DNA from: a bacterium
Lineage (GTDB): Bacteria; Patescibacteriota; Minisyncoccia; Phycocordibacterales; Zambryskibacteraceae
Length of the DNA: 64,000 nt
Direction: 5' to 3'
Assembly (NCBI GenBank): GCA_023266935.1
Contig: JAHFOF010000002.1
Coordinates: 68,623 to 132,622 of the forward strand
How positions within the stretch are numbered: position 1 is the stretch's first letter; the number at the start of each line of letters is the position of its first letter. Positions 57,485 to 62,693 of the stretch are shown in pieces. The position numbers and the translations under genes are program-made. The notes under the pieces were generated by a model. It searched no databases. It was not told the DNA's origin and was given only the letters and a program-made list of their open reading frames with translations.

Positions 57485-57573
57485 GGAGACGTGTCAGAGT
57501 GGTCTAACGTACCTCTTTGCTAAAGAGGCAAGCCTCTTAAAGGGCTTCGAGGGTTCGAATCCCTCCGTCTCCG
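57485..57573 (+). tRNA. tRNA-Ser (GCU)
   Basis: GGAGACGTGTCAGAGTGGTCTAACG...CCTCT-TTGCTAA-AGAGG, long variable arm, GGTTCGAATCC. Confidence 0.85.
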
Positions 57574-57585
57574 CATTAAAACTAT

Positions 57586-58491
57586 ATGGATAAAGATAAA
57601 TTTGTAATATATTTTACTGGTGGCACAATGCGGGGAGTATTCGGAGTAGGAGTTGCCAAAGCATTTGAAAATAATAATCTTTATCCAAAAATAAGTGTTG
57701 TTTATGGCGCATCTGCTGGAGTGATGACCGGGGCATATTTTCTCGCAAAACAAACTGAGTTAGGGGCGTCTATCTACTGGGAAGATTTAAGAAAAAAATT
57801 TATATCCCGCAAAGATTTTTTCATTGGCGTGTGGCAACGTTTTCAAGACGAATTTATCAAGACTGTCCCACAAGATGAGTTGCATGACGCCCTAAATATT
57901 GAATATTTAATGAAGGTTGTAAAAGATGAAAAAAGTCTTGATACTCAAAAAATAATTTCACAGGAGATACCTTTAAATGTAAAACTTTTTGATTTAGATA
58001 CTCACGACATAAAATATATTGATGCACGTCGCCCCGATATTTTAGAAATACTCAGGGCCGGTGTTAATGCATTTCCTTATGTTCATGAAATTTCTATGAT
58101 TGACAACAAGAAATATATTGATGCCGCTATTATCGATATTGTCGGCTTTGATTACTTGAGACAAAAGCACCCTACCGAAAAAATAATTATTGTCATGAAC
58201 GGACAAATTGATAGGAAATTTCGTTATAGAGCTAAAAATATTCTTGAAGGGAAGTTTATGCAGTGGATGTTTGATGACCCCGCACTTTATAATTTATATG
58301 CTACTGCAGAAGATAAATTGGCAAAAGATATAGAAAAAATAAAATGTGATTCTAATTCTTTACTTATTACTCAAGACAAAGATGTTTTAGTTCGGTCACG
58401 AACAACAGATGCCAAATTACTTTTAGAGATGTATAATTTAGGTATTAAAGCAGGAAATCGAGCATTACAGAGTTCTTTTATGAACTCTTAA
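57586..58491 (+). CDS. patatin-like phospholipase
   Basis: GGTMRG oxyanion motif, GASAG nucleophile, downstream DGA-type Asp. Confidence 0.75.
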   Translation: MDKDKFVIYFTGGTMRGVFGVGVAKAFENNNLYPKISVVYGASAGVMTGAYFLAKQTELGASIYWEDLRKKFISRKDFFIGVWQRFQDEFIKTVPQDELHDALNIEYLMKVVKDEKSLDTQKIISQEIPLNVKLFDLDTHDIKYIDARRPDILEILRAGVNAFPYVHEISMIDNKKYIDAAIIDIVGFDYLRQKHPTEKIIIVMNGQIDRKFRYRAKNILEGKFMQWMFDDPALYNLYATAEDKLAKDIEKIKCDSNSLLITQDKDVLVRSRTTDAKLLLEMYNLGIKAGNRALQSSFMNS

Positions 58492-59001: not shown

Positions 59002-59814
59002 ATGGCAAAACCCTATTATAAAAAAGATAATTTTAAACTATACCAAGCTGATTGTTTGGATATTCTAAAAGAAATACCAGAAAATTCTGTTGATATGGTC
59101 TTTGCTGATCCTCCATATTTACTTTCAAACGGAGGTTTTACCGTACACGCTGGAAAAATGGTAAGTGTAAATAAGGGAGAATGGGACAAAAGCAACGGTT
59201 TAAAAAAGGATTTTGAGTTTCATCTCGAGTGGATTCGAGCAGTTAGACGTGTTCTTAAACCCTCCGGCACACTTTGGATTAGTGGAACATACCATTCAAT
59301 CTATCAATGTGGTTTTGCACTTCAAGTTGCTGGATTCCACGTGCTCAATGATATTGCGTGGTTTAAACCAAATGCATCACCGAATTTAAGTTGTCGTTTT
59401 TTTACCGCAAGCCACGAAACCCTTGTTTGGGCGAGAAAAGACAAAAAAGCAAAACATATTTTCAATTACGATTTAATGAAAAATGGTACTTGGCCAGAAG
59501 ACGCATTGAAAAAGCCGGGGCTCCAAATGCGCTCGGTTTGGTCAATGGGAACACCAAAACCAATTGAAAAGAAATTTGGAAAGCATCCAACCCAAAAACC
59601 AGAAGATTTGCTAAAACGGGTTGTTCTTGCTAGTACTAATAAAGGGGATATCGTGCTGGATCCATTTACAGGTAGTTCTACCACTGGGATTGCTGCACAT
59701 TTATTCGGTAGAAAATTTATTGGTATTGATTTAGATAAGAAATTTTTAGATGTTTCAATAAAAAGATTTGAAGAATTAGATAAAAATATTAGAAATAAAA
59801 GAGCAAAAATATGA
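59002..59814 (+). CDS. DNA methyltransferase, beta class (N6-adenine or N4-cytosine)
   Basis: FADPPY (motif IV) precedes DPFTGSSTTG (motif I). Confidence 0.85.
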   Translation: MAKPYYKKDNFKLYQADCLDILKEIPENSVDMVFADPPYLLSNGGFTVHAGKMVSVNKGEWDKSNGLKKDFEFHLEWIRAVRRVLKPSGTLWISGTYHSIYQCGFALQVAGFHVLNDIAWFKPNASPNLSCRFFTASHETLVWARKDKKAKHIFNYDLMKNGTWPEDALKKPGLQMRSVWSMGTPKPIEKKFGKHPTQKPEDLLKRVVLASTNKGDIVLDPFTGSSTTGIAAHLFGRKFIGIDLDKKFLDVSIKRFEELDKNIRNKRAKI

Positions 59815-60332
59815 TAGAAAAAGGTAAAGGAGGAGGGAACACCATAACGGGTTTGAATTTTGAAAAGGAAACGGATATCCTGTCACTTCTTAAAAATCAA
59901 AAAGGATACAAAATAAAAGAAAATATTATTTTTTATGACGGAAAAGAAGTCGCAAGGAGCTATAAAAAGAATGGTTTGTATAAATTCTTAGAATCAAAAA
60001 AAGTAGATTATAAAAAAATAATTTCAAAAAAATTACTTCCAGATGAAGCTTTATATGTAATCGTGAACAACACTCTATTTGTTATTGAAGTTAAATTTCA
60101 AAAAGTCGCAGGCTCTGTTGATGAAAAGCTTCAAACATGCGATTTTAAAAGAAAACAATATGCCAAACTTATGGCCCCGCTCAATATTGAAGTTGAATAC
60201 ATTTATATATTAAGCGAATGGTTTAATCATCCAACATATAAAGATGTACGGGATTATATAATTTCAGTTGGATGTCAGTATTATTTTAAATATCTACCGC
60301 TTCAGAAGTTGGGATTACCCATTCCAAAATAA
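59811..60332 (+). CDS. putative type II restriction endonuclease (PD-(D/E)xK)
   Basis: PDEALYVIVNNTLFVIEVKFQK; translationally coupled 3' of the MTase; very AT-rich. Confidence 0.5.
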   Translation: MIEKGKGGGNTITGLNFEKETDILSLLKNQKGYKIKENIIFYDGKEVARSYKKNGLYKFLESKKVDYKKIISKKLLPDEALYVIVNNTLFVIEVKFQKVAGSVDEKLQTCDFKRKQYAKLMAPLNIEVEYIYILSEWFNHPTYKDVRDYIISVGCQYYFKYLPLQKLGLPIPK

Positions 60333-60336
60333 TAAA

Positions 60337-60540
60337 ATGTTAAGGCAAGGAGTTAAATCATCGGATCTGCTATCAGTAGGTTACCATTCTGGTACTTTGG
60401 AAATAGAGTTTAAAAATAATTCAATATATCAATATTTAGATGTTCCAGAATATATATATCATGAATTAGTAAACTCAGATTCTAAGGGGAAATATTTCAA
60501 TCAGAATATCAGAAATATTTTTAGATGTATGAAAATATGA
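60337..60540 (+). CDS. stand-alone KTSC-domain protein
   Basis: GTLEIEFKNNSIYQYLDVPEYIYHELVNSDSKGKYFNQNIR matches the KTSC consensus. Confidence 0.6.
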   Translation: MLRQGVKSSDLLSVGYHSGTLEIEFKNNSIYQYLDVPEYIYHELVNSDSKGKYFNQNIRNIFRCMKI

Positions 60541-62693
60541 AGCAAGTAAATATTAATCTAGAAAATTGTTATGGAATAACAAAATTAAAAAAGGATTTTG
60601 ATTTTTTAAATGGAAACGTTTATGCCATTTATTCTCCAAATGGAACGATGAAGACTTCATTTGCTAATACTTTTAAAGATATAAGTAAAGTTTTATTAAC
60701 TACGGATAGGGTGTTTCGTAGACCAAATGTGCGTGATATAAAAAAAGAGAACAATGTTGATCTTTCTCCAGAAGAAATTTTCGTAATCGAACCATATAAC
60801 GAATACTTCGTTTCGTCTAGAATTTCCACTCTTCTTGTAAATAAGAGATTAAAAAACGATTATGAAAATATTTATATAAAGATTGATGAAGCAAAAGAAA
60901 AATTATTTAAGAAAATATCTAAAATGTCTGGTCTGAAATCTTCGTTAGAGGAAGAAATTTCTATTTCTTTTACCGGGGAAGAGGGTAATTTTTTCGATGT
61001 TTTAGAAACTATTAAACCCTATGTGGCAGATTTATCTGAACCAGTATATTCTCAAGTATCTTATAAGGAAATTTTTAACGAAAAAGTTTTAAATTTTTTG
61101 AACATGGAAAATGTCAAAGAAAATATTTCTAGTTATATAACAAAATACAATGAATTAATTGAATCATCTACCTATTTCAAAAAAGGTGTTTTTAATCATA
61201 ATAACGCATCTGCAGTTTCAAAAAATTTAAAGGATAATGGTTTTTTTGAAGCGGAACATTTCATTTCGTTACATGGTCAAAGCGAAGATCAAAGAGTTAA
61301 TAACAAAGAAGAATTCGATAGGATTATAGAACAAGAGAAAAATATTATTTTAAACAATACAGAATTATTAGCTTCCTTTGAAAACATAGATAAAATTCTT
61401 ACTAAAAATGAAGAGTTACGTAGTTTCAGAGAATTTTTAACAAATAATACGGGTATTATTCTAGAACTACTTGAAATTGAAGAACTTAAGAAAAAAATAT
61501 GGTTATCATATTTTAAAACTCACAAAGATTTATATATAAATCTGATTACAGAATATGAAGAAGCTAAAGAAAATTTAAAAAATATAATTGCTCAAGCAAA
61601 ATTGGAAATAACTCGATGGAGAAAGGTGGTTGATATTTTTAACAAAAGATTTTTTGTACCATTTAAGTTAGAAATAGCAAACCAAGAGGACGTTATCTTA
61701 AAGCAAGTGGCTCCATTTATATCATTTGTTTTTAAGGATTTTATTTCTGAGACTCCAATTGAACAAGCCGAGTTAGTTACGATATTAAGTACTGGAGAAA
61801 AGCATGCTTTATATATACTTAACGTAATTTTTGAATTTGAAGGGAGAATTGAAACGGGACAAGAAACACTTTTTATTGTGGATGATATCGCTGATTCTTT
61901 TGATTATAAAAACAAGTATGCAATCATAGAATATTTAAAAGAAATTTCTAATATTAATATATTTAATCAGATTATTCTAACTCACAATTTTGATTTCTTT
62001 AGAACTATACAGAGTAGGCTTAATCTATCTCGAGATACAAAAGTTTTAATGGTTGAAAAAACTCTCAGCGGCGTGAATCTAGTCAAAGCAGAATATTTCA
62101 ACCCTTTTAATTACTGGATGGATCATTTGAACGAGGATAAAAAATTTATAGCATCTATAGCTTTTTCAAGAAATATTATTAATTATATAGTTGGAGAGGA
62201 TGATCAGGACTATCTTAAACTGACGTCTCTTCTACATATAAAATCAGATACAGATTCAATAACCAAAATAGATGTAGAAAGTATATATAAAAAATTTTTT
62301 CCAAAACAATCAAACTTAAATCTATTGAAACCAAACGATAAAATTATAGATTTGATATTTTCATTGGCTGAAGTTTGTTTATTAGATCCAGAAGGAATAA
62401 ATCTTGAAAATAAAATAATTCTTTCTATTGCAATAAGACTCAAGGCCGAAAAGTTCATGCTAAGCAAACTAACAGATAAGAATTATGCAAATAAAAATCA
62501 AACTAGAGAATTTTTTGATAGATATAATGTAGAGTTTGGGAATACAGAACTAGAGAAAGTTAAAATTCTAGAGAGAGTTAATTTGATAACTCCTGAAAAT
62601 ATACACCTGAATTCTTTTATGTACGAGCCAATTCTAGACATATCAGATGTTCATCTCAAGGAATTGTATAATGATGTTAAGGTGATGCAATGA
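60525..62693 (+). CDS. PrrC/RloC-like (AAA_13-type) ABC ATPase with coiled-coil insert and C-terminal effector-like domain; degenerate Walker A
   Basis: N-terminal VNINLEN...NVYAIYSPNGTMKTSF (PrrC-like IYGxNGSGKTT with GK changed to MK). Coiled-coil middle, ABC signature LSTGEK, Walker B LFIVDD, H-loop ILTHN, about 250-aa C-terminal domain with R-x3-E. Confidence 0.5.
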   Translation: MYENMKQVNINLENCYGITKLKKDFDFLNGNVYAIYSPNGTMKTSFANTFKDISKVLLTTDRVFRRPNVRDIKKENNVDLSPEEIFVIEPYNEYFVSSRISTLLVNKRLKNDYENIYIKIDEAKEKLFKKISKMSGLKSSLEEEISISFTGEEGNFFDVLETIKPYVADLSEPVYSQVSYKEIFNEKVLNFLNMENVKENISSYITKYNELIESSTYFKKGVFNHNNASAVSKNLKDNGFFEAEHFISLHGQSEDQRVNNKEEFDRIIEQEKNIILNNTELLASFENIDKILTKNEELRSFREFLTNNTGIILELLEIEELKKKIWLSYFKTHKDLYINLITEYEEAKENLKNIIAQAKLEITRWRKVVDIFNKRFFVPFKLEIANQEDVILKQVAPFISFVFKDFISETPIEQAELVTILSTGEKHALYILNVIFEFEGRIETGQETLFIVDDIADSFDYKNKYAIIEYLKEISNINIFNQIILTHNFDFFRTIQSRLNLSRDTKVLMVEKTLSGVNLVKAEYFNPFNYWMDHLNEDKKFIASIAFSRNIINYIVGEDDQDYLKLTSLLHIKSDTDSITKIDVESIYKKFFPKQSNLNLLKPNDKIIDLIFSLAEVCLLDPEGINLENKIILSIAIRLKAEKFMLSKLTDKNYANKNQTREFFDRYNVEFGNTELEKVKILERVNLITPENIHLNSFMYEPILDISDVHLKELYNDVKVMQ

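Follow-up and report, generated by a model that had tools for sequence, protein, structure and literature searches.

A type II restriction–modification pair followed by a KTSC protein and a PDC-S46 ATPase with a HEPN-like domain: a candidate PrrC-like defence operon in a CPR-type bacterium

The stretch of DNA considered here (hereafter the window: 64,000 nucleotides of contig JAHFOF010000002.1, from a bacterium of the candidate phyla radiation (CPR) type) contains four co-oriented open reading frames (ORFs) on the + strand within positions 59002-62693, as seen in an ORF survey of the window. The first (59002-59814, 270 aa) codes for a DNA methyltransferase (MTase). The second (59811-60332) codes for a 173-aa protein with a PD-(D/E)xK motif, the putative restriction endonuclease (REase) partner of the MTase, the third (60337-60540) for a stand-alone KTSC protein of 67 aa, and the fourth (60537-62693, with an alternative start at 60525) for an ATP-binding cassette (ABC) ATPase of the PDC-S46 family, whose C-terminal domain is HEPN-like. 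We argue that these genes may form an operon in which a restriction–modification (R-M) pair is backed by a putative RNase, in a manner that resembles PrrC.

The genes are tightly packed. The stop of the MTase gene and the start of the next ORF overlap by 4 nt, a gap of 4 nt separates the stop of the putative REase gene from the KTSC start, and the KTSC stop and the ATPase start overlap as ATGA if the ATPase begins at 60537. An initial annotation of this DNA had described four co-oriented, overlapping or nearly overlapping AT-rich genes, the last of which coded for a 722-aa ATPase. This description of the block is correct: all four ORFs are present, and their GC contents (MTase 0.358, 173-aa protein 0.293, KTSC 0.27, ATPase 0.27) are lower than that of the window (0.407). 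As for the ATPase, the ORF does extend over 722 aa from the upstream ATG at 60525, but the start at 60537 (M5), which gives 718 aa, is the one used in the family alignment and by public gene calls for this contig. Residue numbers of the ATPase are counted from the ATG at 60525 throughout. A scan of the window sequence revealed no terminator-like site inside the four-gene block, and nothing above chance was found that would bound the block, be it att-like direct repeats, terminators or promoters.

The MTase matches Pfam N6_N4_Mtase (2.7e-58) and the PADLOC model MTase_II (4.3e-100). Its DPPY motif lies ahead of the S-adenosylmethionine motif FTGSS, which is the order of beta-class enzymes; the motif order and the Pfam match thus support the class that the initial annotation had given. 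Judging from these features, the enzyme is a beta-class N6-adenine (or N4-cytosine) DNA MTase of a type II R-M pair. An MTase from an Azambacteria genome (locus L037) shares 71% identity with it, and the MTases of two other loci, L081 and L082, 75-78%. The L037 MTase (L037:522-1379) is paired with a DpnII-family REase (L037:1382-2302), and not with a 173-aa protein, so that a conserved MTase has changed its nuclease partner. The window contains 139 GATC sites for 233 expected (0.60), whereas GANTC is not depleted. Based on the DpnII pairing in L037 and on the depletion of GATC, the MTase is probably GATC-specific.

The 173-aa protein carries the motif P77-D78...E93-V-K95. All its Pfam matches are sub-threshold (PDDEXK_11, 2.8e-4; NERD, 7.8e-3) and no sequence relative was found in the PDB. 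The annotated PD-(D/E)xK endonuclease gene after the MTase is thus recognizable from its PD..EVK motif, with sub-threshold support from Pfam, and its product is a putative nuclease. In L081 (5001-5522) and L082 (5001-5525) the 173-aa protein is encoded directly 3' of an N6_N4 MTase, without KTSC or ATPase, which suggests that the MTase and the 173-aa protein form an autonomous and widespread CPR module. An MTase and a nuclease partner in conserved adjacency are what defines a type II R-M pair, the role of the nuclease being putative here. About 6,700 homologues of the 173-aa protein, 80-90% identical, are found on contigs of CPR, Parcubacteria and Paceibacterota type, which suggests that the window too comes from a CPR host; the protein is always encoded behind a similar beta-class MTase. 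Its conservation across many CPR lineages is unusually high for a restriction enzyme.

The ATPase matches the PADLOC hidden Markov model (HMM) of PDC-S46 (PDLC05023) with an E-value of 1.2e-259 and 861.8 bits, residues 5-720 covering positions 1-717 of the 719 of the model, and all 21 relatives that were sampled match the same model. On this end-to-end similarity, the protein is a member of PDC-S46, a catalogued family of phage-defence candidates (PDC). The PDC set consists of 145 untested candidates, identified through their embedding in type I R-M, BREX and DISARM loci (Payne et al., bioRxiv 10.1101/2024.01.29.577857). PDC-S46 is listed there as a single-gene candidate; the parts of the text and supplements available to us contain no experiment, domain description or mechanism for it, and the listing does not include the operons in which the gene is appended to type II R-M genes, the HEPN-like C-terminal domain, the RNxxE motif or the KTSC partner that we describe below.

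The family is large, numbering over 7,400 clusters when grouped at 90% identity and about 1,000 at 50%, and is found in at least 426 GTDB species, including archaea (Woesearchaeota, Methanohalophilus), on 29 plasmid records and on one phage record. The plasmid copies are mostly solo, which is consistent with a self-contained single-gene system. Relatives also match the mad8, PDC-S06, AriA, OLD-type and AbiLi models. Pfam SMC_N matches the ATPase with 2e-5 and 24.6 bits, which is below its gathering cut-off of 40 bits, and the NCBIfam and direct PDB sequence searches with the ATPase and with the profile of its C-terminal domain returned nothing useful. The PDC-S46 match and the low SMC_N score agree with the earlier proposal of a defence ATPase rather than SMC or RecN, and we consider, from these profile comparisons, that the protein is a defence-type ABC ATPase and not a housekeeping SMC/RecN protein. 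In some public records (Rhizobium plasmid CP140800.1, our locus L170; UniRef100_A0A519BFI4) members of the family are named "phage infection protein", with no evident experimental basis.

An AlphaFold2 (AF2) model of the full-length protein has a pLDDT (predicted local distance difference test) of 83.8, and its best Foldseek matches are the heads of SMC, Rad50 and cohesin together with PtuA of retron Ec83/IA (E 2e-6 to 1e-4). Conservation was counted in an alignment of 198 PDC-S46 relatives. The variant Walker A motif, or P-loop, spans residues 36-45 (YSPNGTMKTS; 60630-60659, + strand), of which N39, G40, M42, K43 and S45 are kept in 196-197 of 198 sequences. The region from the ABC signature S422-T-G-E425 through Walker B (L449-FIVDD454) lies at 61788-61886 (+); S422, G424, D453, D454 and D457 never vary, and E425 is found in 197 of 198. 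The H-loop histidine, H487 (ILTHNFDF; 61983-61985, +), is present in all 198 and aligns to ITTHSP of PrrC. The motifs that had been read from the sequence at the outset (NGTMKTSF, LSTGEK, LFIVDD and THN) are therefore all real and conserved, and the protein has everything that characterizes an ABC ATPase: the Walker A lysine, the signature, Walker B, the H-loop and the head fold. The P-loop of the family reads N39-G-x-M-K43-[TS]-S, that of PrrC AFNGTGKTR. The initial annotation had rightly noted that MK replaces GK; since this is nearly invariant in the 198 relatives, it is a fixed trait of the family and not a local degeneration. The long coiled coil that had been announced is not there: in the AF2 model, Walker A is separated from the signature by an insertion of some 270 aa that folds as a helical bundle, unlike the long coiled coil of Rad50, and the model shows neither a hinge nor a long coiled coil. 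There is no CxxC zinc hook, the ATPase having just two cysteines.

Residues 518-722 (62076-62690, +) form an all-helical C-terminal domain which is weakly HEPN-like and which we regard as a putative RNase effector. A profile search with this domain in 1.84 billion representatives returned 1,263 clusters; in the best 150 of these 1,263 hits, the domain is always C-terminal in proteins of about 720 aa or in fragments. The reference for PrrC was a set of six genuine, plasmid-borne sequences, one of them annotated as "anticodon nuclease" and encoded between hsdS and hsdR; in their alignment R320, E324, K325, R349, S355 and H356 are invariant. Comparison of the family with PrrC using hhalign gives a probability of 78-81% and E ~1e-5 over a region that spans Walker B, the H-loop and the RNxxE motif. 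In every region tested, PFVRNLIEYT of the family is paired with HFxLLRNLYEKT of PrrC, so that R549, N550 and E553 fall on R320, N321 and E324. In the window, the candidate catalytic motif is R549-N550-I-I-N553 (62169-62183, +), for a family consensus R-N-L-I-E aligned with R320-N321-L-Y-E324 of PrrC. R549 and N550 are present in all 198 relatives, and position 553 is E in 191. With the C-terminal domain alone against full-length PrrC, hhalign returns nothing more than a spurious match of 25 columns, and a Foldseek search of the PDB with this domain gave no significant match.

Other residues of the domain are equally conserved. H571 (LTSLLH; 62235-62237, +), present in 198 of 198, is preceded by K565, which makes a possible [KR]-x5-H counterpart of the Rx4-6H motif of HEPN domains; K565-x5-H571 could correspond to R349-x6-H356 of PrrC, a loose resemblance; hhalign does not align the two. 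R549, N550, H571, K630, R638, E642 and H694 are essentially invariant. The last 150 aa have no counterpart in PrrC and contain the invariant E628, K630, R638-x3-E642 and Q659, as well as the best-conserved stretch of the family, T689-P-E-N-I-H694-x-N-S-F-M-Y-E-P702 (62589-62630, +), each position of which is kept in 187-197 of 198 sequences. The initial annotation had pointed to an R-x3-E pair in this domain: the pair it saw, probably R638/E642, is conserved, but it is another one, R549/E553, that aligns with PrrC.

The gene is often found next to R-M genes. We examined 80 PDC-S46 loci from species-representative genomes, 77 of which have an upstream gene; the downstream neighbours were counted over 78. 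In 34 loci a co-oriented gene ends at most 150 bp upstream of the ATPase, and about 18 of these 34 (in about a quarter of the 77 loci) are R-M genes: Methylase_S (4), N6_Mtase (4, including Eco57I-type and type ISP), ResIII/HsdR (4), N6_N4_Mtase (2), and one each of C5 MTase, HpaII, DpnII, PstI-family and Vsr. On the downstream side just 4 of the 25 co-oriented neighbours are R-M genes. The systems that precede the ATPase are of types I, II, IIG/ISP and III, and the ATPases nearest to that of the window (57-59% identity; P0017, P0027 and P0010 below) likewise come after unrelated type II systems. The gene orders include C-protein, Dam-type MTase, 365-aa protein, ATPase (P0017); DpnII, MTase, ATPase (P0027); C5 MTase, HinP1I, ATPase (P0010); C-protein, MTase, DpnII REase, ATPase (L037); C5 MTase, HpaII, ATPase (L001); and hsdM, hsdS, ATPase, KTSC, hsdR (L071). 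In the remaining loci, and in most plasmid copies, the ATPase is solo or among other defence or mobile genes. The linkage of the family to R-M operons of all types is thus facultative but strong and directional. That the ATPase is restriction-linked, as first proposed, holds for the family as a whole; the conservation of the precise order MTase, REase, KTSC, ATPase does not, as this four-gene order was found in no other genome.

Regarding other neighbours, a search of the 80 loci for a conserved small ORF beside the ATPase gave two KTSC genes only, the other small ORFs being unrelated and probably spurious. RmuC-family and DUF2130 genes recur beside PDC-S46 ATPases (L175:5753-7072, L176:6987-8306, L174:3697-4950), in some cases with overlapping stops and starts, and may be further accessory components.

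The third protein matches Pfam KTSC (PF13619) with E 1e-21 and 76.8 bits, for a gathering cut-off of 25 bits, in agreement with its annotation as a 67-aa stand-alone KTSC protein. In the PDB, it matches 7x8c, a stand-alone KTSC protein (5e-15), and the C-terminal 68 residues of 8wiv, a HerA fusion (4e-14). The domain owes its name to its occurrence at the C-terminus of some lysyl-tRNA synthetases. The partnership with PDC-S46 is sporadic: KTSC adjoins the ATPase in 2 of the 80 PDC-S46 loci, upstream in L047 and downstream in L071, and conversely the ATPase is found at one (L141) of the 80 closest metagenomic KTSC loci. Three of the four cases known, counting the window, are in different R-M operons, namely a type II operon (the window), a type I operon (L071) and an Eco57I-like type IIG operon (L141). 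The KTSC-linked ATPases rank worse than 100th of 198 with respect to each other, which rules out a dedicated subfamily; as they do not form a clade, the pairing has arisen repeatedly. In L141, a 347-aa ORF with no Pfam match (L141:6609-7652) overlaps the 3' end of the ATPase gene and is possibly another component of that operon.

The other partners of KTSC are informative. Among the 80 KTSC loci (L083-L162), 24 code for fusions of HerA (DUF87 and HerA_C) with KTSC, e.g. L089:1982-4207 and L105:2189-4000. In at least 11 further loci a separate HerA-like gene immediately precedes KTSC, joined in 6 of them by SIR2_2, and 7-9 loci have genes for an OLD/Gabija-like ABC ATPase and TOPRIM (AAA_15, DUF2813, OLD-like_TOPRIM). 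In the HerA–KTSC systems (8wiv; Sir2–HerA and DUF4297–HerA types), as in the window, KTSC accompanies a defence NTPase; the differences are that the partner in the window is an ABC ATPase, of another fold class, and that KTSC is a separate polypeptide. Comparative papers from one research group describe KTSC as DNA-binding in one case and as RNA-binding in another, and the parts of the HerA–DUF4297 structure paper available to us do not discuss the KTSC domain and give no functional clue. We thus see in KTSC a candidate accessory or adaptor that would bind nucleic acids and serve the ATPase; the company it keeps points to a portable defence-NTPase accessory rather than a tRNA-Lys-specific device.

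How does PDC-S46 compare with the RNases that resemble it? PrrC (EcoPrrC, from the type Ic EcoprrI hsd locus) has the design that we propose here, with an N-terminal ABC-type NTPase and a C-terminal RNase of the HEPN class, and is likewise linked to R-M; the profiles of the two align from Walker B onward into the RNxxE motif (R320/E324), and L071 has a prr-like gene order, hsdM-hsdS-ATPase-(KTSC)-hsdR, a real prr locus being present in L163. However, PrrC has about 396 aa and no large insertion, whereas PDC-S46 proteins have about 720 aa, with the 270-aa helical insertion and the additional, conserved 150-aa C-terminus. The P-loop is NGxMK in PDC-S46 and NGTGK in PrrC, and PrrC H356 has no aligned equivalent. 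The prrC gene is flanked by hsdS and hsdR in a type Ic locus, while the window ATPase, of 718 aa, follows a type II pair; the R-M linkage is facultative and involves all types for PDC-S46, and is to type Ic for PrrC. RloC, a Rad50-like, zinc-hook anticodon nuclease that excises the wobble nucleotide and belongs to AAA_13, shares the ABC head and the inserted helical region, has a C-terminal HEPN-type nuclease such as we propose for PDC-S46, and, like most members of PDC-S46, is a single protein that is usually not R-M-linked (PMC3710099). The window ATPase differs from it in having no CxxC, no long antiparallel coiled coil and no AAA_13 match. More generally, ABC–HEPN fusions are "often found in R-M operon" and were proposed to be second-line suicide RNases (Anantharaman et al. 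2013, PMC3710099). APECO1_4465 and ERFG_01251, described in the same paper, have this general design, the comparison being by description only; PDC-S46 differs from that class in that it does not have the strict Rx4-6H signature of catalytic HEPN domains.

The initial annotation had called the ATPase PrrC/RloC-like, with a PrrC/AAA_13-like N-terminus. Membership in PrrC, RloC or AAA_13 is not supported: the HMM searches give no match, the zinc hook is missing and the size is different. No PrrC or RloC model matches any of the 21 relatives at E ≤1. For AAA_13 (PF13166, gathering score 36 bits), one relative reaches 43.9 bits (P0090), another 31.6 bits (P0104), and 8 of 10 have no match. As far as these comparisons go, the ATPase resembles PrrC and RloC in its design and belongs to neither family.

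The reading that we favor, and that we consider somewhat likelier to be right than wrong, is that the four genes form a two-layer, restriction-linked abortive-infection operon of a CPR-type bacterium, PrrC-like in design. In the first layer, the compact type II pair, made of the MTase (probably GATC-specific) and the 173-aa PD-(D/E)xK nuclease, would restrict incoming DNA. The second layer, appended 3', would be PDC-S46, in which the ABC ATPase acts as a sensor and switch for the HEPN-like effector domain fused to it. The comparisons above show what the genes are, the family of the ATPase, how its head is folded, that the motifs are conserved and that R-M linkage recurs. By analogy with PrrC and RloC, we infer the RNase activity, its RNA target, the trigger, the coupling to R-M and the role of KTSC as follows. 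The ATPase head would keep the C-terminal domain inactive until a cue of infection, or of a failing R-M system (such as an anti-restriction protein or an abnormal state of DNA or nucleotides), shifts the nucleotide state of the head. The freed RNase, which would be metal-independent, would then cut tRNA or another essential RNA, so that translation stops and the infection is aborted. KTSC, translationally coupled to the ATPase, would be an optional nucleic-acid-binding adaptor or regulator, of a kind that various defence NTPases recruit.

Several observations weigh against this reading. When the ABC part is left out of the hhalign comparison, the register is the same, with P of just 0.008-0.05. 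No strict Rx4-6H motif is present: the residue five positions after R549 is Y in 165 relatives and F in 29. At position 565, 157 of the 198 have K and 10 have R, so that this residue is not invariant. The window copy has N at position 553 (62181-62183), all other conserved residues being intact; E324 is an essential residue of PrrC, and if E553 is its equivalent, the window copy may be weakened or altered in activity. The window ATPase has no PrrC or AAA_13 match at E ≤0.1 in PADLOC and Pfam, and the AAA_13 matches seen in 2 of 10 relatives are confined to the C-lobe of the ABC domain (model positions 277-589 of 713). We found no literature specifically on PDC-S46, including any experiment. 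Last, each module also occurs without the other: at most loci the ATPase is on its own, and L081 and L082 carry the R-M pair by itself, so that functional coupling is not required.

This last point is the starting point of another explanation, which we regard as possible if rather unlikely: the R-M pair, KTSC and the ATPase would be independent neighbours gathered at a permissive "sink" of a defence island, and their adjacency would reflect co-transfer. The embedding of defence genes in such genomic sinks is discussed by Payne et al. (bioRxiv 10.1101/2024.01.29.577857). The explanation fits with the existence of the MTase and 173-aa pair on its own in other CPR genomes, with PDC-S46 being solo at most genomic loci and on plasmids, with the KTSC-linked ATPases not being a clade, and with the GC contents, 0.36 and 0.29 in the R-M genes as against 0.27 for both KTSC and the ATPase, a difference that points to separate acquisition. 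Against it stand the asymmetry of the neighbourhoods, with R-M genes directly upstream, co-oriented and often with overlapping stop and start in about 18 of 77 loci, against 4 of 78 downstream, the recurrence of the same 3'-appended order with many unrelated R-M types, and the ATGA overlap of the KTSC and ATPase genes. A chance neighbour of another kind, namely a housekeeping SMC/RecN/RecF-like ATPase that happens to lie beside the R-M genes, is effectively refuted: the weak SMC_N match (2e-5, 24.6 bits) and the Foldseek matches to SMC, cohesin and Rad50 heads speak for it, but that match is below the 40-bit cut-off, the protein has no hinge and no long coiled coil, its gene is low in GC, the distribution of the family is patchy and horizontally mobile (plasmids included), and the PADLOC defence-candidate model is matched over the full length, in R-M and defence neighbourhoods.

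In a further alternative, which seems improbable to us, the C-terminal domain has no RNase activity and PDC-S46 is a DNA-sensing or DNA-targeting ABC ATPase, like Rad50, PtuA, AriA or GajA; its helical C-terminal domain would serve as a sensor, or as a docking platform for a separate effector such as a neighbouring RmuC/DUF2130-type nuclease or the R-M enzyme. The head does resemble the DNA-clamping ATPases of SMC, Rad50 and retron PtuA, the HEPN similarity is weak and the strict Rx4-6H is missing, RmuC or DUF2130 genes recur beside the ATPase, and the motif that is conserved best, TPENIHxNSFMYEP, has no counterpart in PrrC. On the other hand, the family is usually solo, so that the effector must be built in, and invariant residues of the R, H and E kind are what active sites of metal-independent RNases typically contain, the RNxxE motif being aligned with that of PrrC. 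The model of the initial annotation, in which KTSC is a tRNA-Lys sensor or antitoxin for an anticodon nuclease of the PrrC/RloC family, is in our view very improbable. The name of the domain, taken from lysyl-tRNA synthetase, the one comparative paper that calls it RNA-binding and the translational coupling of the KTSC and ATPase genes are in its favor, as is the fact that PrrC and RloC cleave tRNA-Lys (PMC3710099). Yet 78 of 80 family loci lack KTSC, which can be upstream or downstream of the ATPase when it is present, the ATPase is found at 1 of 80 close KTSC loci, the HerA(-Sir2) and OLD-like ABC–TOPRIM partners do not target tRNA-Lys, the same research group elsewhere calls KTSC DNA-binding, and the tests of membership in PrrC/RloC fail. 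A tRNA-Lys-specific role of KTSC is thus unsupported, because its nearest relatives mostly accompany HerA–Sir2 or OLD-like ATPases and the KTSC-linked ATPases are scattered in the family.

Concerning the surroundings of the block, a tRNA-Ser(GCU) gene is found at 57485-57574. The block is downstream of it, as annotated, but not directly, since a patatin-like gene and a TspO gene lie in between. We set the tRNA aside as an integration site of the block, which is 1.4 kb away and separated from it by two genes of differing GC. The patatin-like phospholipase gene (57586-58491; Pfam 4.7e-12) has a GC content of 0.333 and begins 12 nt past the tRNA; the TspO gene, which comes next, has a GC content of 0.48. 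Patatin-like enzymes are common defence effectors, and because a low-GC gene of this kind directly follows the tRNA-Ser(GCU), the foreign region may begin there.

As to what these observations add, the class of ABC–HEPN proteins associated with restriction had already been generalized by Anantharaman et al. 2013 (PMC3710099), and PDC-S46 had been catalogued. What is new is the HEPN-like assignment, the PrrC-like RNxxE motif, the 3'-appended order on R-M operons of type II and of other types, the sporadic partnership with KTSC, and the place of KTSC as an accessory of defence NTPases, which is a first functional context for a domain known only by name. A broader proposal, which we put forward tentatively and hold to be doubtful at this stage, is that PDC-S46 is a third major, pan-prokaryotic lineage of ABC–HEPN RNases, separate from PrrC and RloC, that guards R-M systems of every type by cutting tRNA once restriction has been subverted, and that KTSC is a portable sensor or adaptor of at least three unrelated classes of defence NTPase–nuclease. 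If so, KTSC would define a common input signal for HerA–Sir2/DUF4297, OLD-like ABC–TOPRIM and PDC-S46 systems. PrrC is the textbook RNase that guards an R-M system, with a narrow distribution tied to type Ic enzymes. If PDC-S46, a far larger family, is indeed an R-M-guarding RNase, it would offer a compact, single-protein, ATP-switched RNase to study, for which culturable hosts exist (Acinetobacter baumannii, Vibrio, Providencia, Pseudomonas and Paenibacillus plasmids among them), and the backing of restriction by translational suicide would prove to be general and not a curiosity of T4 and E. coli.

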